Positions 33,749 to 51,126 of a stretch of 64,000 nucleotides of DNA are shown here, piece by piece (within the stretch, counting starts at the first letter, position 1; each line of letters starts with the position of its first letter). Position numbers and translations under genes: made by a program. This stretch comes from Candidatus Nomurabacteria bacterium. GTDB lineage: Bacteria; Patescibacteriota; Minisyncoccia; Phycocordibacterales; UBA9973. The notes under the pieces are model-generated. The model saw nothing but the letters and a program-made list of their open reading frames with translations, searched no databases and had not been told where the DNA came from. Location of the stretch: the NCBI GenBank assembly GCA_016699085.1, contig CP064958.1:475181-539180 (forward strand), in the 5' to 3' direction.

Positions 33749-33964
33749 ATCTCCACTCTTCAGTAAGAAGGGTATCTAACAGATTATGCCTATGAAAAAC
33801 TAAACTTTTTATTTTGTAAACAAGTAAAGTTCATATATGCGCCTGTTAGACGCTTTTTTCTTTGAAAATTTAAACATCAATGTAATGTGAATTAAAGTCA
33901 GTAAGTAAAGTAATCTGAGTCAAGAAAATGTATTTTTTCTTTTGTTTCGTTCTATTTTTTAAGT

Positions 33965-35608
33965 AGAGTTTGATCCTAGCTCAGGATGAACGCTGGCGGC
34001 GTGGATAAGGCATGCAAGTCGAACGAATTTTAATTGTTGAAGTTGAAATGAAGTAGCAATATGGAATTTTGATAGATATTTTTAAAATTAGTGGCGAACG
34101 AGGTAGTAACACGTGGGTACTTCCCCCTAAGTCGCGAATAATCCATCGAAAGGTGGACTAATACGCGATATACTTCAGAGTGAAAGATTTTTCGCTTAGG
34201 GAAAGGCCTGCGGGATATCAGCTAGTTGGTAGTGTAATAGACTACCAAGGCTATGACGTCTAGGGGAGCTGAGAGGCTGACCCCCACCGATGGGACTGAG
34301 ACACGGCCCATACACCTACGGGTGGCTGCAGTCAAGAACCTTCCACAATGGACGAAAGTCTGATGGAGCGACGCCGCGTGATTGATGAAGTCCTTCGGGA
34401 CGTAAAGATCTTTTATGAGGGAAGAAGTTTATTGACGGTACCTCATGAATAAGGGGCTCCTAATCTCGTGCCAGCAGGAGCGGTAATACGAGAGCCCCGA
34501 GCGTTATCCGGAATTATTGGGCGTAAAGGGTGCGTCGGTTGTTATATTAGCCTCACTTTAAATCTTCATGCTCAACATGAAGCATGGGCGGGGAACGGTA
34601 TGACTAGAGGTTGTGAGAGGTGTGCGGAACTCAAGGTGTAGGGGTGAAATCCGTTGATATCTTGGGGAACACCAAATGCGAAGGCAGCACACTGGCACAT
34701 ATCTGACACTCAAGCACGAAAGCGTGGGTAGCGAATGGGATTAGATACCCCAGTAGTCCACGCCCTAAACGATGATCTCTCGGTTTTCGGAGTATCGACC
34801 CTCTGAGAGCCTAAGCTAACGCGTTAAGAGATCCGCCTGGGAAATACGGCCGCAAGGCTAAAACTCAAAGGAATAGACGGGGACTCGCACAAGCAGTGGA
34901 TTATGTGGTTTAATTCGATGGTAAACGAAGAACCTCACCAGGGTTTGACACCTACGTGAAAGCTCTAAGAAACTAGAGCCCTCGCAAGACTAGTAGGCAG
35001 GTGTTGCATGGCCGTCGTCAGTTCGTGGTTTGAATTGTTCCCTTAAGTGGGGTAACGAACGCAACCCTCGTCGTGTGTTATATTTGTCACACGAGACCGC
35101 CCAGAACAAAGCGCGTGAATGCGCTTCTAGTAGAAAGTGTAAAGTTGAAAGTCAAAAGTGAATTCAGAAATGCATTTACTTTAAACTTTCTACATTCAAC
35201 TTTTGACTTGAAGTGTACATCGTACGTTTCGTTCTGGGAGGAAGGAGAGGATGACGCCAGGTCAGCATGACCCTTTGATATCCTGGGCTACACACATAAT
35301 ACAATGACGGCTACAACGCGTTGCGACGAGGTAACTCTGAGCTAATCGTTATAAAAGCCGCCTCAGTTCGGATTGAGGTCTGCAACTCGACCTCATGAAG
35401 TTGGAATTGCTAGTAATCGCAGGTCAGACATACTGCGGTGAATACGTTCTCGAGTCTTGTACTCACCGCCCGTCAAGTCAAGGGAGCTGGGAATACCCGA
35501 AATTTCTACATTAGTAGGACCTAAGGTAAGCTCAGTGACAGGGACTAAGTCGTAACAAGGCACGGGTAGCGGAAGCTGCTCGTGGAATAATTCAATTTGA
35601 AACCTTTC
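33965..35608 (+). rRNA. 16S ribosomal RNA with lineage-specific insertions (expanded V1 and a roughly 120-nt insert in the helix-40 loop). The 3' tail is atypical and lacks CCUCC.
   Basis: AGAGTTTGATCCTAGCTCAGGATGAACGCTGGCGGCGTG at the 5' end. Universal blocks GTGCCAGCAGGAGCGGTAATAC, GGATTAGATACCC, GCATGGCCGTCGTCAGTTCGTG, TACACACATAATACAATG, GTCGTAACAAGG. The 3' boundary is approximate. Confidence 0.9.
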
Positions 35609-43557: not shown

Positions 43558-46080
43558 ATGACATTCATAAAATCATTATTTGGTAACGCCGATAGCAGAT
43601 TTTCCAAAAGCGTTGCGCCGACACTCACAAAAATAAATGCTCTAGAAAAAGATATACAGAGCCTCTCTGATGCGGATTTCCCACGCAAGACCAATGAGTT
43701 CAAGGAACGTATTCAAAATGGCGAGACATTAGATCATGTGTTGCCTGAGGCGTTCGCCTTAGTACGTGAAGCTGCGAAGCGTTCGCTTGGTCAGCGACAC
43801 TACGATGTGCAGCTCGAAGGTGGCATTGCGCTTCACCAAGGCAAAATTGCCGAAATGAAAACTGGTGAAGGTAAAACACTTGTTGCAACACTTGCAACCT
43901 ATTTAAATGCCCTCGAAGGTCGCGGTGTGCACGTCGTCACTGTCAATGACTATCTCGCGCGCCGTGATGCACAGTGGATGGGGCAGATATATTCTTTTTT
44001 AGGCATGTCAGTTGGTATTATCAATAGCCAACAAGTATCATATCTCTACGACAGTACTCATACCGCAGATGACAAAGAGCATGATGAGACGAGCTCTTTT
44101 AAGGTCATGTATGAATTCCTAAAGCCAGCACCGCGCAAGGCTGCATACCTCGCTGATATTACGTATGGCACGAACAATGAGTTTGGATTTGATTATCTGC
44201 GCGACAATTTGGTTGTTTCTAAAGATCAGCTCACCCAGCGTGAACATTATTACGCAATAGTTGATGAAATCGATTCGATTTTGATTGATGAGGCACGAAC
44301 GCCGCTTATTATTTCTGCTCCTTCAGGAGATTCTGAAAAGCTCTATAGTACATTTGCCGATATTGCAACCAAGCTCTCCGTTGGAGAAGATTACACGGTT
44401 GATGAGAAGCACCATTCGATTGCACTAACTGATGCTGGTATTACGAAAGCAGAAAAATTGCTCGGCATAGATAATATTTATACAGAAAAAGGCATTAAAT
44501 ATGTCCATCACCTTGAGACTGCTGTTCGTGCGCGGGCATTGTATATCAAAGACAAGGAATATGTTGTCAAAGATGGTGAAGTTATTATCGTCGATCAATT
44601 TACTGGGCGATTGCAACCTGGGCGTAGGTATAGTGAAGGCATCCACCAAGCTGTGGAAGCTAAAGAGGGGGTTACGATCCAGCAAGAAACCAAAGCAGCT
44701 GCATCTATAACCTACCAAAATTACTTCCGTCTGTATAAAAAATTATCAGGCATGACTGGTACGGCTAAAACTTCAAGTGAAGAATTCTTCAAGGTGTACG
44801 GTCTTGAAGTCATGACTATTCCGACTCATCGGCCGAACAAGCGTATCGATACGCCGGACTTGGTGTATCAAAGTGAAATCGGTAAGTGGCAAGCAATTGC
44901 TAAAAAAGTTAAAGAGCTTAACAAAAAAGGGCAGCCAGTACTTATTGGTACGATTTCAATCGAGAAAAATGAAATGCTTTCAGCATATCTTGCCAAAGAA
45001 GGTGTGCCGCATACCATACTTAATGCCAAAAACCACGAACGTGAAGGTGAAATCATTTCTCAAGCAGGACGCAAAGGCTCTGTGGTGATCGCTACCAACA
45101 TGGCTGGTCGTGGGGTTGATATTGCACTCGGTGGTAAGCCTTCAACACCAGAAGAAAATGAAGAAGTAAAAAATCTCGGTGGACTTTTTGTCTTGGGTAC
45201 GGAACGTCATGAAGCTCGCCGTATTGATAATCAGCTGCGTGGCCGTTCAGGTCGTCAAGGTGACCCAGGTGAAACTGTTTTCTTTGTATCGCTCGAAGAT
45301 GATCTCATGCGAGTATTTGGCGCAGATAATATCAAGCGCATGATGGGCAAATTTGGTATTCCTGAAGACCAGCCAATACAAAATAAACTCATTTCTCGCG
45401 CACTTGAAAGCGCGCAGGCTAAGATCGAAGGATTTCACTTTGATGCCCGCAAGTATACGCTCGAATATGACAACGTTATGAACCATCAGCGTCATGTGAT
45501 TTATGATCGTCGCCGGGTATTACTGGTTGGTACTTTAGAAGAAATTAAAACCTATATTGATGGATTTATAGCTCAACACGTAGAGCTTGCGGCATTGGCC
45601 GAAGAGAAAAAAGTATTACTCTCTGAAGAGACGTATTATGAAACACTTCGCCGGATTATTCTCTATGTTACTGATGCGCTCTGGTCAGAGCATTTGGAAA
45701 CTATGGAATATACTCGCTCATCGGTAAATTTGCGTGCATATGGTCAGCGTGAACCGCTCATTGAGTATAAAAAAGAAGGCTTGAGGCTTTTCAAGGAACT
45801 CGAACAATCATTACTCGAGCAAGTTTATGAACTAACTAAAACGATTGATACTGGGACAACTGTTGCTCCAGAGAATCCTACACCAGCACCGCAATTTACT
45901 GTTACAAGCAATCCCGCACAAAATCTTGAGCCGCAAAATGTAGCGAGTAATGTTTCAGAAGGTGGATCAAAAATTGGCCGCAATGATTCTTGTCCATGCG
46001 GTAGTGGTAAAAAATGGAAAAAATGTGGCATGCTCAACACTACTGAGCATCAAAAATTACTGGCAGAAAAAAGTAAGTAA
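43558..46080 (+). CDS. secA: Preprotein translocase ATPase SecA with a C-terminal zinc-binding tail
   Basis: Canonical SecA motifs (MKTGEGKT, DEVDSILIDEARTPLIIS) and C-terminal CPCGSGKKWKKCG. Confidence 0.97.
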   Translation: MTFIKSLFGNADSRFSKSVAPTLTKINALEKDIQSLSDADFPRKTNEFKERIQNGETLDHVLPEAFALVREAAKRSLGQRHYDVQLEGGIALHQGKIAEMKTGEGKTLVATLATYLNALEGRGVHVVTVNDYLARRDAQWMGQIYSFLGMSVGIINSQQVSYLYDSTHTADDKEHDETSSFKVMYEFLKPAPRKAAYLADITYGTNNEFGFDYLRDNLVVSKDQLTQREHYYAIVDEIDSILIDEARTPLIISAPSGDSEKLYSTFADIATKLSVGEDYTVDEKHHSIALTDAGITKAEKLLGIDNIYTEKGIKYVHHLETAVRARALYIKDKEYVVKDGEVIIVDQFTGRLQPGRRYSEGIHQAVEAKEGVTIQQETKAAASITYQNYFRLYKKLSGMTGTAKTSSEEFFKVYGLEVMTIPTHRPNKRIDTPDLVYQSEIGKWQAIAKKVKELNKKGQPVLIGTISIEKNEMLSAYLAKEGVPHTILNAKNHEREGEIISQAGRKGSVVIATNMAGRGVDIALGGKPSTPEENEEVKNLGGLFVLGTERHEARRIDNQLRGRSGRQGDPGETVFFVSLEDDLMRVFGADNIKRMMGKFGIPEDQPIQNKLISRALESAQAKIEGFHFDARKYTLEYDNVMNHQRHVIYDRRRVLLVGTLEEIKTYIDGFIAQHVELAALAEEKKVLLSEETYYETLRRIILYVTDALWSEHLETMEYTRSSVNLRAYGQREPLIEYKKEGLRLFKELEQSLLEQVYELTKTIDTGTTVAPENPTPAPQFTVTSNPAQNLEPQNVASNVSEGGSKIGRNDSCPCGSGKKWKKCGMLNTTEHQKLLAEKSK

Positions 46081-46138
46081 TAGTATTTCGTACATAAAAA
46101 ACCGCCCCTGGTATTTGGGGCGGTTTTTGCAAGATATC

Positions 46139-48322
46139 TTATTGTTTTTCAATCTTGCATTCTTTCGTTTTTGTTTTAATTATATACAGCCCGTTTGGCT
46201 GATTTGATAAATCGATATCTCCAGCATAAATTCCTTTCATTAGGAGTTTATTATTGGCTGAGTAGACTCGTATTTCCTCCTCTGCATTTCCTGTCACATT
46301 AATTCTCCCGGTGGTTGGATTTGGATACGCATGCAGTTGATTGTCTCCTTCTTCCAGATCAATAGTCCCGACTCTTGGTGTATTTACCACCAAAGAACAA
46401 GGCAATATCGTCTCAACAGCTAGATCATTGGCAGCAATTTTTGCAGCCGACAAACGATCTCTGTAAGACTGAATGGTTGAACTGAACGCAGGATTATTTA
46501 TCTGATTGGTCAGTTCTAACGGATCATTGACCAAATCGAAAAATTCTTCTGTCGTACTACTACAGCCCGAATACAAGTATTTATACTGCAAATCCCATAG
46601 TCCATGAATGTAAGGTAGATCCTGGTACTGATTCTCCGTTGTGTAGAACGAATGGTAATAAATTTCATTCACCGTAGCAGTATGATTTGCTAGATTTCTC
46701 AGTGAATATCCATCCATACCAAACGTATTCGGTATACCAACAGCATCGAGAATTGTTGTTGGGATATCGATATTTCTTACCAAATCTGTAACGATTGTCC
46801 CAGGTGCAAACCAAGCAGGGTAGCGTACAAACAATGGCAGTTTTACCGATGGCTCATAAGCGATACGCTTCATATTGTAGTGATGCTCACCATACATGTA
46901 GCCATTATCTGAGCTGAAAATGATTATAGTATTGTCGAGTTTGCCTGTAGCGGTAAGCTCATCTAGTATCCTGCCAATATTGTAATCAAGTTCGGCGATC
47001 ACAGCATAGGTATCGTAGTACTGCTCCTGTAGTTCACTTCCCACAGCATAGTTTTTGCCTGGTGGCAAAAGGTATGACCAAGACGCGTAATTTTGCGTAT
47101 ACTTTGCCGTGTCCGGCTTTAATTGCAATGGGAAACTGCGGTATATATCGTATATCGATGTATAGGCAAAAGGGGTATGGGGTGCCTTGTAGGGAAGGTA
47201 TAGATAGAATTGACTGTTCACGTTATGGATGCGATCAATCGCGGCGTCGGTTATGAAATTACTGCTCAGTCCTGTCACTTTTATGCTTGGTCCATCTGAA
47301 TTAATATTCACATTCTTCTTTGTGGCTTCGTCGTTCGACAACACTTCATACCAATAGTCCCAATCTCCGTCTGCATACGCCTGAATTTCGTGGTTTTTCC
47401 CGATCAATCCTGTGTAAATTCCACTTTCACGAAGGATTTTGGGCACTCTTGGTAGGGTTTTATCAAACTGAGCTTGTTTTGAGTTATCAGTGACATGATG
47501 AACGTTCGCACGCCGTCCTGTTAACAAGGTTGCTCGCGTGGGAGCACATAGCGAATATTGGCTATAGCAGTTAGTAAATTTCGCTCCCTCATTTGCTATT
47601 CGATCAATATTGGGAGTTTGAAAGAAGGATGCAGCACCATTACAACTGAACCAATCATACCTGGAATCATCCAAAAGGATAAATATAACGTTTGGATGGG
47701 GAATGCCACCAGTGGTGGTAAATGTAGTAATCGATGTCCAATTAGCTTCAATAGCTGTATCACAGCTATTTATTCTGACCTGGTACATCGTGCCTACTAC
47801 TAATCCTGTTAGGTTTATGCTTGTGCCTCCAGATAGTATGGTCCATGGAGTTGTTCCAATTGGTCTATATTCCACAAATGCATTTGGGTTACATGCAGCT
47901 GACCATGCAACTGTTGCAGACGTGTTGGTAATATTACTTACCTGCACATTTGAAGGCAGACTGCAGGCAAGCGTTGTGGTATTCTTGCCGTTTTGTGTAG
48001 CCCCAGGGGTACTGTCGGCGCAAAATCCTTGCAATTTGAACGCATACTGGGTGTCTCCGATAAGTCCTGTCACTATATACGTGGTTACATTACCTACGTT
48101 TACAATTGTCCAATTTCCATTGGGATTAATTTTTCGATAACTTAATTCATAATAAGTGGCATTTGCCACCGTGTTCCAGTTAACCGTAACTGAACATTCA
48201 GTTACATTGGTCAGTGTTTTAACTGCAACGGGTCCTGGCGGTGTGCATACTGCCATTGAAAAGTTAAAGGGGATAGTGACTGAAATCACTATCGCCAAGA
48301 AGAAGGTGAGGATCTTTTTCAT
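46139..48322 (-). CDS. Secreted sulfatase (formylglycine-dependent) with two N-terminal FN3-like domains and a C-terminal T9SS type-A (Por) sorting domain
   Basis: Signal peptide. Sulfatase signature CAPTRATLLTGRR (C-x-P-x-R) after FILLDDSRYDWF. C-terminus AYPNPTTGRINV...NGLYIIKTKTKECKIEKQ matches the T9SS CTD pattern. Confidence 0.8.
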   Translation of the reverse strand: MKKILTFFLAIVISVTIPFNFSMAVCTPPGPVAVKTLTNVTECSVTVNWNTVANATYYELSYRKINPNGNWTIVNVGNVTTYIVTGLIGDTQYAFKLQGFCADSTPGATQNGKNTTTLACSLPSNVQVSNITNTSATVAWSAACNPNAFVEYRPIGTTPWTILSGGTSINLTGLVVGTMYQVRINSCDTAIEANWTSITTFTTTGGIPHPNVIFILLDDSRYDWFSCNGAASFFQTPNIDRIANEGAKFTNCYSQYSLCAPTRATLLTGRRANVHHVTDNSKQAQFDKTLPRVPKILRESGIYTGLIGKNHEIQAYADGDWDYWYEVLSNDEATKKNVNINSDGPSIKVTGLSSNFITDAAIDRIHNVNSQFYLYLPYKAPHTPFAYTSIYDIYRSFPLQLKPDTAKYTQNYASWSYLLPPGKNYAVGSELQEQYYDTYAVIAELDYNIGRILDELTATGKLDNTIIIFSSDNGYMYGEHHYNMKRIAYEPSVKLPLFVRYPAWFAPGTIVTDLVRNIDIPTTILDAVGIPNTFGMDGYSLRNLANHTATVNEIYYHSFYTTENQYQDLPYIHGLWDLQYKYLYSGCSSTTEEFFDLVNDPLELTNQINNPAFSSTIQSYRDRLSAAKIAANDLAVETILPCSLVVNTPRVGTIDLEEGDNQLHAYPNPTTGRINVTGNAEEEIRVYSANNKLLMKGIYAGDIDLSNQPNGLYIIKTKTKECKIEKQ

Positions 48323-48709
48323 AGGTGTAGGTTTTTGGTTTTTTATTCGTTTTTTAAAAAATGCCTTGGATCTATTTAAGCATTTATTGTATTTTTTTAC
48401 AATTATGGATTTCTATTGTTTAGTTTTTTAGGTAAAAATTGATATGTTTTACTCGTTTTGTATCTATTTTTCGATTAAAGTAAAGAATTTTATAAAGTCT
48501 GCTAAAACTACACATATTTACTGTATATTTGTCAATGTTTAATCTCTAAAATATCCTTATAAAATAAGGATATTTTTCATTTGACACACTACAAAAATGT
48601 TGTCTAACTATTGACTTCTTGTGTCAAACATGCTAGTATATGGGCATCTCCAAAAGTCTATTGTCTTATGGAGTTTTTTAATTAGAGGCCGAAGTTCGGC
48701 TATACCGAT

Positions 48710-49330
48710 ATGACGTTTGATGGAGCAAAACCATCAGTTATGGGTAAAAACATACTTATACGCTCTCTACAGTCATTTGTCGTTATTCCTATTTTGGCGA
48801 CAAACTTTGCCACTTTCCCACTAGTTAGTACAAAGCTTCCTACTGTAGCAGTATCAATGTCCGAAGAAATTAGGCTCCTTGATGAAAAGTCCACTGATAA
48901 CAAACAGGAGGAACGTATCATTAAGGCCAAACAGATTGACAATTATTTTCTCGATAACGGCATGAAGCCACTAGTTGGCTATGGTATGAAGATGGTTCTT
49001 GCTGCTGAAGCAAACGACATTGATTCATATCTATTGCCTGCGATTGCAGTTCGTGAATCTACGGGCGGTATACATGCTTGTAAAAGCGTGCCGAACAATG
49101 CCTGGGGATGGCATTCCTGTAAGCGTGGTTTCAAATCTTATAATGAAGCAATCGATACGATTGCCAAGCATTTGGGTGGAAACATGACGACAACAGCAAA
49201 GTACTACGAAAATAAAACAACTATTCAAATTCTCGAAAGTTATAATCCTCGTTCAATCGTACCTCGGTACCCTGAACAAGTGATGAATATTATGAAGAAT
49301 ATTGAAACACATACAACTCAAGAAGCCTAA
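48710..49330 (+). CDS. Hypothetical membrane-anchored protein, possibly with a lysozyme-like or transglycosylase-like domain
   Basis: The LLPAIAVRESTGG segment weakly resembles the SLT E-S motif. Otherwise unassigned. Confidence 0.35.
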   Translation: MTFDGAKPSVMGKNILIRSLQSFVVIPILATNFATFPLVSTKLPTVAVSMSEEIRLLDEKSTDNKQEERIIKAKQIDNYFLDNGMKPLVGYGMKMVLAAEANDIDSYLLPAIAVRESTGGIHACKSVPNNAWGWHSCKRGFKSYNEAIDTIAKHLGGNMTTTAKYYENKTTIQILESYNPRSIVPRYPEQVMNIMKNIETHTTQEA

Positions 49331-50136: not shown

Positions 50137-51126
50137 ATGAAAACAAGAATTCTCTTTATTTTTGCTATCGCTAGTATCCTTTTCAGTTCATGTGGGCTTT
50201 TCAAAAAAGCTGACAAAACTCCTGAAGAAAAAAAACAGGATACACTGACCGTTAAGATGGTCAGCAATGAACCAGGGGGGCTGAATTTAATCCCTCAAAG
50301 AATCAAAGATTCAACTCAGTTTTATTTAAGCTCTAGCATTGAATTATTTGCAGTTGACACCGGTTATGATGTAAAGGTTGAGGGAGTTATCAATGTCTAT
50401 GCTCGTCCAGAAATGTATCGGAATTTTAAAGCCGGTAAACCAGGGCTGGCAAAAGACCTGAGTGGAACACAGCCTGATTATATTTTGGATGTTTTATTTG
50501 ATACTCTAAAATCTGATCATGATAAGTTTTTAAACTTTGAAAGTGATGATAAGGGGTATCGATTTATTGATGACTATGGAGATGCTTCTGATAGTATTAT
50601 CTATTATGATGGTCGTGAGTTTCGTTACAGATTCGATACACTACCATATTTGATAGTTAAGCCAAACTTTCATTCCGCACCGGTAGACAGAAAGGAAGCA
50701 TCTGGTGTTTTGTTTGGACAATCTACAGAACCTTCAGCATCCGCACCGTTAGCATCTCCTAATACTACTGTGAAAAAAGATTCAGTTACAAAAACGAATC
50801 CAACAGTTTCTGGAAAAGGAGGATTGCCAAGTAGAAATGGAAGCGTTTCCACAGATACAGTCGCATTAAATATCACTTTCACCCCAGGTAAATTAAATGC
50901 TCAAGGAGGAAGGGAGGGGATTGTAAGCTGGGATAAAAAATTGATTGGTGCAACATATAAACTTATAGTTTATTATGAGCAAGAAAATTTGTCACAAGCT
51001 GATAATATTACCGGCTCCGCATCGCCAATTATATTAACTCCAGGGTTTACTTATACTCTGAAAGTTATAGGAAAAGATGCAACGGGCAAAATTATTGCAC
51101 AAGGTAAAAAAATTATAACCTTGTGA
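50137..51126 (+). CDS. Hypothetical lipoprotein
   Basis: Signal peptide plus lipobox FSSCG. 329 aa. Ser/Thr/Pro-rich linker. Confidence 0.45.
   Translation: MKTRILFIFAIASILFSSCGLFKKADKTPEEKKQDTLTVKMVSNEPGGLNLIPQRIKDSTQFYLSSSIELFAVDTGYDVKVEGVINVYARPEMYRNFKAGKPGLAKDLSGTQPDYILDVLFDTLKSDHDKFLNFESDDKGYRFIDDYGDASDSIIYYDGREFRYRFDTLPYLIVKPNFHSAPVDRKEASGVLFGQSTEPSASAPLASPNTTVKKDSVTKTNPTVSGKGGLPSRNGSVSTDTVALNITFTPGKLNAQGGREGIVSWDKKLIGATYKLIVYYEQENLSQADNITGSASPIILTPGFTYTLKVIGKDATGKIIAQGKKIITL

Follow-up and report, generated by a model that had tools for sequence, protein, structure and literature searches.

Type-A C-terminal domains (CTDs) of type IX secretion systems (T9SS) are treated as a marker of the Fibrobacteres-Chlorobi-Bacteroidetes (FCB) superphylum and of outer-membrane secretion. 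Characterised examples are those of Flavobacterium johnsoniae NucA and FspA (8GLK/8GLJ) and of Porphyromonas gingivalis RgpB (5AG8/7PQ4) and PorZ (5M11). The T9SS itself, described as specific to the FCB superphylum, has at least 19-20 components and moves cargo across the outer membrane (PMC12398890, PMC8754138, PMC9170169), and Patescibacteria, or candidate phyla radiation (CPR), have been proposed to lack an outer membrane (PMC12102498). The gene described here lies in a 64,000-nt stretch (the window) of contig CP064958.1 of Candidatus Nomurabacteria bacterium, a member of the Patescibacteria, and encodes a secreted sulfatase with two FN3 domains and a type-A CTD. It is probably an old cargo gene of Chitinophagales type that entered the lineage by one transfer, was then inherited vertically and kept its CTD as a fold that no longer serves as a signal. 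A literature search found no report of T9SS CTDs in Patescibacteria/CPR, nor of a sulfatase from Nomurabacteria. The parts of the gene are listed below; the ratios of nonsynonymous to synonymous substitution rates (dN/dS), here and later, compare the window with L087, a relative at 90% amino acid identity, and L002, being 99-100% identical to the window, was set aside.

46139..48322, minus strand: whole gene for the secreted FN3-FN3-sulfatase-CTD protein of 727 aa, an exact match to NCBI protein QQR49989.1; stop codon at 46139-46141
48251..48322, minus strand: Sec-type signal peptide, residues 1-24, MKKILTFFLAIVISVTIPFNFSMA with the predicted cut before VC, read by eye
47978..48250, minus strand: FN3 domain 1, residues ~25-115 (Pfam fn3/fn3_2 match over 36-98; dN/dS 0.059)
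47708..47977, minus strand: FN3 domain 2, residues ~116-205 (best Pfam fn3 stretch 123-199; dN/dS 0.128)
46403..47707, minus strand: S1 sulfatase core with SGSH_C, residues 206-640 (PF00884, PF16347; dN/dS 0.036)
47534..47548, minus strand: formylglycine motif C-A-P-T-R, residues 259-263, aligned to SGPSR of 5G2V
46328..46402, minus strand: low-confidence linker between sulfatase and CTD, residues 641-665 (predicted local distance difference test, pLDDT, below 50 for model residues 1-19; dN/dS 0.18)
46142..46327, minus strand: T9SS type-A CTD homologue, residues 666-727, a compacted seven-strand beta-sandwich (PF18962, TIGR04183; dN/dS 0.113)

The initial annotation had read the open reading frame (ORF) at 46139-48322 as a secreted FN3-FN3-sulfatase with a T9SS CTD, and its Pfam and NCBIfam domains bear this out. 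The putative signal peptide shows on inspection a basic N-terminus, a hydrophobic core and small residues ahead of the predicted cut, and comparable N-termini are present in all CPR and Bacteroidota homologues. The fn3 family (PF00041) matches in two stretches with 53.3 bits (cut-off 25). The Sulfatase family (PF00884) spans residues 210-530 and the complete profile (all 301 positions; 150.4 bits, cut-off 25, E 8.9e-44), and SGSH_C (PF16347) covers residues 478-626 (E 5.6e-24). The formylglycine motif that had been quoted, SLCAPTRATLLTGRR, is present at residues 257-271, and the signature C-x-P-x-R is invariant among all family members inspected. The catalytic and metal-binding residues (DD 218-219, CAPTR 259-263, GKNH, SDNG and MKR) are kept in the query and in all CPR copies. 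The best solved relative of the catalytic core is 5G2V, a Bacteroides thetaiotaomicron N-acetylglucosamine (GlcNAc)-6-sulfatase (E 8e-52) of what we take to be the S1_11-type subfamily of SulfAtlas; mucin-desulfating sulfatases come next (PDB 7P24, E 1e-46), and all NCBIfam equivalog models score far under their cut-offs. Because the catalytic set is conserved and its motifs align with the active site of 5G2V, the enzyme is very probably active, provided that Cys259, the predicted formylglycine precursor, is converted to formylglycine. The remark that neither a formylglycine-generating enzyme (FGE) nor an anaerobic sulfatase-maturating enzyme (anSME) is encoded in the window agrees with the Pfam search of its ORFs of at least 120 aa, and neither FGE (PF03781) nor a radical-SAM/SPASM maturase was found in these or in the related CPR flanks. 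This raises the question of how a Cys-type sulfatase matures in an 808-kb genome.

The C-terminus quoted in the initial annotation (AYPNPTTGRINVTG...NGLYIIKTKTKECKIEKQ) is likewise present, and its assignment to the Por/T9SS CTD type holds: two models score above their curated cut-offs, and the fold is CTD-like. Por_Secre_tail (PF18962) matches residues 666-724 of 727 with 31.2 bits (gathering cut-off 27), and the NCBIfam model for the 'T9SS type A sorting domain', TIGR04183, reaches 26.2 bits (cut-off 23). A hidden Markov model (HMM) built only from the CTDs of family members in Bacteroidota-type contexts matches the CPR proteins with E-values of 1e-7 to 3e-8 (query 1e-7); as a positive control, it recovers an unrelated CTD protein in contig L006 (E 6e-14, 47.7 bits with the full model). 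Reciprocally, a profile made from the four CPR CTDs only was searched against a collection of 5.8 billion proteins. All proteins retrieved carry PF18962, all named matches are 'T9SS type A sorting domain-containing protein' from Bacteroidales, Flavobacteriales, Ignavibacteria or Bacteroidetes, and the top match, P0156, sits in an FCB-type context. No other CPR protein with a CTD was returned by this profile, which is weak evidence of absence: the 308 candidates, all of 75-135 aa, were short PF18962 fragments from FCB-type organisms, and full-length sulfatases were not recovered among them.

Structural comparison points the same way. The AlphaFold2 model of residues 641-727 is a seven-strand sandwich with pLDDT of ~86-92 over the folded part. 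The best Foldseek match in the PDB is 8glk_D (E 8.6e-4, TM-score 0.62/0.71), the sole match with E <1e-3, followed by 8glj_D; both are T9SS substrate CTDs in the SprA-PorV translocon. The RgpB CTD (7pq4, 5ag8) and PorZ (5m11) also rank high, before or among generic Ig folds. Moreover, collinearity with dozens of FN3-sulfatase-CTD proteins from Bacteroidota extends over the entire length of the protein and takes in the CTD. The generic Ig-like or FN3 fold without likeness to TIGR04183, which the initial annotation had allowed for, was thus found neither by HMM scoring nor by fold search.

That the host is not one of the Bacteroidota, as had been suspected, follows from its NCBI naming, its SecA relatives and its 16S features. 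The window proteins bear the NCBI accessions QQR49948 to QQR49992 and belong to a metagenome-assembled genome (MAG) named Candidatus Nomurabacteria bacterium, on a single 808,221-bp contig, and the closest SecA proteins among GTDB species representatives (62-67% identity) all belong to Patescibacteria/Paceibacterota MAGs. The 16S rRNA gene (33958-35597) spans 1640 nt, with an insertion of 48 nt in an early helix and alterations at the universal-primer sites 341F (CCTACGGGTGGCTGCAG) and 515F (GTGCCAGCAGGAGCGGTAA), so that standard amplicon primers would probably miss the organism. Neither 23S nor 5S occurs within the 64-kb window, and the rRNA genes are for this reason read as unlinked. A long 16S with an insertion, altered primer sites and an unlinked 23S are typical of CPR. 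The gene repertoire of the window (GH57, glycogen synthase and phosphorylase, cupin-type GPI, RNase J, FtsEX, ribonucleotide reductase and ABC transporters) is, judged by its annotation, that of a small fermentative symbiont, and Pfam detected no genes for outer-membrane biogenesis, T9SS or sulfatase maturation among the window ORFs of at least 120 aa. An FCB genome with a full T9SS, which would have removed the anomaly, is therefore not what was found: the host phylum is CPR, and the T9SS is absent from the window and the related flanks examined. The argument from consensus promoters that had also been advanced carries no weight, since consensus matches are no commoner than in shuffled sequence (7 sites around the gene against 10.0 ± 3.6 expected).

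Homology searches revealed a large family sharing the FN3-(FN3)-sulfatase-CTD architecture, in which all named members with 33-42% identity come from Chitinophagales/Chitinophagaceae MAGs, some of them on Mb-scale contigs. The contexts of near non-CPR members are of Bacteroidota type: L006 carries complex I genes and three CTD proteins within 8 kb, another contig has five CTD proteins within 20 kb, and sister or outgroup contexts also include a SusC-type TonB-dependent receptor and a Chitinophagales MAG. Contexts adjoining secA in CPR are represented by four cluster representatives, namely the query, P0001 (90% identity), P0002 (47%) and P0003 (40%). In neighbour-joining (NJ) trees with Kimura-corrected distances and 200 bootstraps, the sulfatase tree being built on the catalytic core, the four CPR copies are monophyletic in 142/200 replicates and the query, P0001 and P0002 group together in 194/200. 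The CPR clade is nested, at a median depth of 8 nodes, within more than 55 sequences from Bacteroidota contexts. A phylogeny of the sulfatase domain had been proposed as a check; the CPR copies prove to be nested in a Chitinophagales-type radiation of the same architecture, and this nesting, with the shared architecture, supports the suggested horizontal acquisition of a T9SS cargo gene.

The position of the gene is defined by the following neighbouring features.

43558..46080, plus strand: secA, the left flank of the insertion, kept in every carrier lineage (Pfam, synteny)
46096..46128, no strand: bidirectional intrinsic terminator common to the convergent secA and sulfatase genes (sequence and terminator scan)
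48323..48709, no strand: AT-rich 387-bp intergenic region 5' of the sulfatase, bearing the divergent promoter region common to the sulfatase and the 206-aa gene
48710..49330, plus strand: hypothetical gene of 206 aa (hyp206), the right flank of the insertion; homologues found by tblastn in carriers and in the non-carriers L007, L008 and L009

The sulfatase and secA genes stand tail to tail, and the terminator between them (A6, stem CCGCCCC/GGGGCGG, 8-nt loop, T5) lies within their 58-bp gap. The order secA, sulfatase, 206-aa gene recurs in ~10 independent contigs or assemblies (Logan, JGI, NCBI) from ~8 or more samples. Logan SRR11674009 holds an identical copy and a 47-kb JGI contig a 99% copy in this arrangement; the 90% orthologue P0001 is represented by at least seven contigs from NCBI GCA_964563615.1, JGI 3300045333, SRR12487045 and SRR23702518, and the arrangement is also present in SRR32414321, GCA_964599225.1 and GCA_013558375.1. 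The carriers have diverged considerably from one another: L003 shares 72% identity with the window in SecA, 47% in the sulfatase and 82% in DAO, and L004/L005 share 65% in SecA and 40% in the sulfatase, with 53% in DAO for L004. None of 80 SecA loci from species representatives, the five closest Patescibacteria among them, has a sulfatase or CTD beside secA. In L007 the site is empty, secA being followed by ~390 bp and then the homologue of the 206-aa gene, with no sulfatase remnant; the missing segment corresponds to the sulfatase gene together with the 387-bp intergenic region. The SecA tree places the carriers, along with L007 and L008, in a single subclade.

The gene is constrained throughout. 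Its overall dN/dS is 0.062, with the lowest value in the catalytic core and the highest in the linker, and the flanking genes show comparable figures (SecA 0.034, BacA 0.096, the 206-aa gene 0.117); every domain of the sulfatase, CTD included, is under purifying selection. In the suggested check of tetranucleotide consistency, the profile of the gene is the second most deviant of 62 tetranucleotide windows; its GC (z = 0.56) and GC3 (z = 0.94) lie within one standard deviation of host genes.

Synonymous divergence is uneven along the gene. When the window is compared with L087, residues 211-480 (~46883-47692) are almost saturated at synonymous sites, with a proportion of synonymous differences (pS) of 0.72-0.92 and synonymous divergence (dS) of ~1.6, whereas each of the nine flanking genes measured has a pS within 0.33-0.42 (dS 0.43-0.61), and the 5' third of the sulfatase gene gives 0.16-0.50. 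Non-synonymous divergence is low along the whole gene. The pattern suggests intragenic recombination or allele replacement among CPR strains, and it would be explained if a catalytic-core segment had been swapped in this way for a more divergent allele.

The CTD has departed from its Bacteroidota relatives. Across ten hold-out splits, the CPR CTDs reach 28-30 bits, less than any of the 59 held-out CTDs from Bacteroidota members of the family (minimum 35, median 60); these held-out sequences are related to the training sequences, so their scores are somewhat inflated, yet the unrelated L006 cargo reached its 47.7 bits with the full model. The stretch between the PNP motif and the C-terminus is 62-66 aa long in the CPR CTDs, against a Bacteroidota median of 77. 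A search of ORFs in all six frames, over the window and ~100 kb from related CPR loci, detected no second CTD protein and recovered the positive control; Bacteroidota contigs hold 3-5 CTD proteins per 20 kb. Likewise, no SprA/Sov, PorV, PorU or GldK/L/M/N was found in the 64-kb window and ~100 kb of related CPR contigs. The query thus combines two features of T9SS cargo, an N-terminal signal peptide and a CTD, and a further one, several CTD proteins in one genome, was not seen in the DNA tested. For this reason, and with no part of the machinery seen in that DNA, the protein should not be filed as functional T9SS cargo. The earlier suggestion that the CTD-like sandwich serves another purpose is compatible with its dN/dS, its compaction and its sub-Bacteroidota scores, but stops short of proof.

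These observations can be united in one probable account. A Bacteroidota (Chitinophagales-type) T9SS cargo gene, encoding a GlcNAc-6-sulfatase-like S1 sulfatase, would have been acquired in a single, ancient transfer by the ancestor of a Paceibacteria subclade ('Nomurabacteria'-like Patescibacteria), to be inserted between secA and the conserved 206-aa gene and to descend vertically afterwards. The protein would be exported by Sec through its N-terminal signal peptide, which would suffice to reach the cell exterior of an organism without an outer membrane. There the sulfatase may desulfate glycans, for example GlcNAc-6-sulfate-type groups on host or matrix polymers, with the FN3 domains acting as spacer or binding modules. 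Cys259 would be turned into formylglycine by a maturase encoded elsewhere or by another route. The CTD would no longer be a T9SS signal; it may persist as a compact beta-sandwich whose role is structural or stabilising, or lies in binding to surfaces or glycans. An old Bacteroidota-to-CPR transfer followed by vertical inheritance is the best reading of the sequences because the gene occupies the same locus in diverged carriers, is nested in the Bacteroidota family and has a largely ameliorated composition, and a single gain, possibly with loss, is the simplest account. Confidence is highest for this history of transfer and inheritance and lower for the non-signal role of the CTD.

Several points weigh against this account. 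CPR monophyly in the sulfatase tree has 71% NJ bootstrap support, carrier monophyly on the SecA tree is recovered in only 72/200 replicates, so that a gain followed by loss in L007/L008-like lineages is possible, and codon usage and the tetranucleotide profile stand at the deviant edge of the range of the window. The absence of T9SS and maturase genes covers the 64-kb window and related flanks, not the remaining ~744 kb of the genome. The dN/dS of 0.11 in the CTD indicates constraint without telling its purpose and is compatible with a real sorting role; substrate, export route and enzyme activity are read from sequence.

Other histories of the gene fit the data less well. An assembly chimera or mis-binning, with the gene coming from a co-occurring Chitinophagales genome, would explain why every named homologue with 33-42% identity stems from a Chitinophagales MAG and why the tetranucleotide profile is so deviant. 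This possibility, raised in the initial annotation, is nevertheless excluded for practical purposes: the gene lies inside an 808-kb contig with CPR 16S, SecA and GroEL, the same secA-linked junctions recur in ~10 independent contigs, diverged CPR lineages hold diverged copies at the same locus, and the closest Bacteroidota protein is at most 42% identical. A genuine but recent transfer, in which the gene is a new passenger and its useless CTD has not yet decayed, draws on codon usage, the most deviant among 13 large genes, if marginally (15.7 vs 15.1). It is very unlikely, given that the nearest Bacteroidota homologue is just ~40% identical, that orthologues occupy the same locus in lineages with SecA 65-72% identical, that GC and GC3 match host genes, and that dN/dS is 0.06 overall and 0.11 for the CTD. 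The reverse direction, from CPR to Bacteroidota, or an architecture ancestral to both groups, gains some room in that NJ trees rooted at the midpoint or by an outgroup may be misleading where CPR branches are long. Such a history is nonetheless highly improbable, since the CPR clade is small (four representatives) and deeply nested among Bacteroidota-context sequences, CTD function is known only in T9SS-bearing phyla, and close CPR relatives are without the gene.

With regard to the CTD itself, it is extremely unlikely that the domain is a generic Ig/FN3-like sandwich whose likeness to T9SS CTDs arose by convergence. The model scores do exceed their cut-offs only modestly (31.2 vs 27; 26.2 vs 23) and many Ig-like folds follow closely in the Foldseek list; however, the full-length collinear homology with dozens of Bacteroidota proteins includes the CTD, the reciprocal profile gave PF18962 proteins only, and the sole structural match with E <1e-3 is a T9SS substrate CTD. 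The one rival with some weight left is that the CTD continues to serve as a signal for sorting or targeting, read by a so far unrecognised CPR machine or sortase-like step, or docking onto T9SS surface parts of a Bacteroidota host. Its dN/dS of 0.113 is close to the 0.096-0.117 of BacA and hyp206, all four CPR copies retain the YPNP and G-x-Y motifs and that of the basic C-terminal strand, and the donor clade Chitinophagales might plausibly supply a host. Against this stand the lack of a second CTD protein in the window or ~100 kb of related CPR loci, where genuine T9SS users encode many, the lack of any T9SS component in the CPR contexts seen, the shortening of the CPR CTDs with scores below all held-out Bacteroidota values, and the proposal that Patescibacteria have no outer membrane (PMC12102498). 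A working signal is therefore unlikely. It is similarly improbable that the CTD retains a specific role in the adhesion or targeting of an epibiont onto T9SS parts of its host (PorV or the attachment complex), or as a tag of a CPR surface-sorting pathway; if it did, a monoderm-like symbiont would have put a T9SS signal to a new use, and in the case of docking the donor of the gene would also point to the host.

Further observations concern the locus and its relatives. A Shine-Dalgarno-like 4-mer occurs at most 20 nt upstream of the start in 2/46 window genes, and this patescibacterial genome seems, from its start regions, to make little use of Shine-Dalgarno-led initiation. The Shine-Dalgarno motif was considered as a marker of foreign genes and discarded, since just 2/46 host genes carry it. 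Two genes from the sulfatase, the window encodes at 50137-51126 (plus strand) a hypothetical protein of 329 aa with a lipoprotein-like signal (…ILFSSCGLF) and no Pfam match; in the 90% sister lineage, the same slot (L087, 7489-8310) is occupied by a 273-aa protein with a weak fn3 match. To judge by these sequences, the slot is a fast-evolving surface-protein position.

In the SRR32414321 carrier contig (L003, 498-2360, minus strand), a 620-aa protein with an OmpA-family (PF00691) peptidoglycan-binding domain bears on the question of the envelope. OmpA-family peptidoglycan-binding domains also occur in monoderms. An 'uncultured Bdellovibrionales' MAG (L075, 9559-10542, plus strand) has a 328-aa ORF that strongly matches the Bacteroidota CTD HMM as a T9SS type-A CTD (E 5.6e-12); this is either another CTD outside the FCB group or a mis-binned contig. 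SecA matches that rank among those of Patescibacteria include contigs labelled 'uncultured Gammaproteobacteria' (L022, 61% identity to the SecA of the window), 'Candidatus Nanoarchaeia archaeon' (L084, 55%) and 'Armatimonadota' (L024, 49%). Mis-binning or mislabelling of CPR contigs is probable for L022 and L084; in the SecA tree L022 falls outside the main CPR group, which makes its label uncertain.

The locus has consequences for annotation and for CPR biology. A type-A CTD is here inherited stably, under purifying selection, in a patescibacterial lineage that on present understanding possesses neither T9SS nor outer membrane, and the label 'T9SS type A sorting domain-containing protein' alone does not imply a T9SS. 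The gene is a clean case of inter-phylum transfer into CPR and would record old gene flow from Chitinophagales-like bacteria to an ultra-small symbiont, to which it may supply an extracellular glycan-desulfating enzyme; the transfer is also a testable hint at the host or neighbours of the symbiont. For domain evolution, it offers a natural experiment on a secretion signal without its machinery, which compacts and drifts, yet is retained.

Among known systems, the closest are the Chitinophagales proteins annotated as 'sulfatase-like hydrolase/transferase' (for example P0005, P0010 and P0017), which share the domain order, a length of ~720-740 aa and 33-42% full-length identity with the query. 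Like it, these Chitinophagales FN3-sulfatase-CTD proteins have a signal peptide, C-x-P-x-R, the metal ligands and a type-A CTD. They differ in that the query is hosted by Patescibacteria with no signs of a T9SS in the DNA examined, that its CTD is 10-15 residues shorter and lower-scoring, and that its neighbourhood is without other CTD proteins. BT4656 (5G2V) and the mucin-desulfating S1 sulfatases (7P24) belong to the same fold family (PF00884 with SGSH_C) and have aligned active-site motifs; in the solved chain of 5G2V, SGPSR stands opposite CAPTR of the query, which is thus Cys-type, and these Bacteroides sulfatases are without the two FN3 domains and the CTD that the query carries. With the characterised type-A CTDs, the query shares a seven-strand beta-sandwich at the extreme C-terminus, 23-27% identity and TM-scores of 0.6-0.7. 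Unlike them, its CTD is compacted and no SprA, PorV or PorU partner was seen in the host DNA examined, and CTD cleavage and attachment, as in characterised T9SS cargo, would not be expected. The protein is thus a member of a known family, an S1 sulfatase of the Chitinophagales-type FN3-sulfatase-CTD architecture (PF18962/TIGR04183), in an unexpected host, and not a new kind of system.

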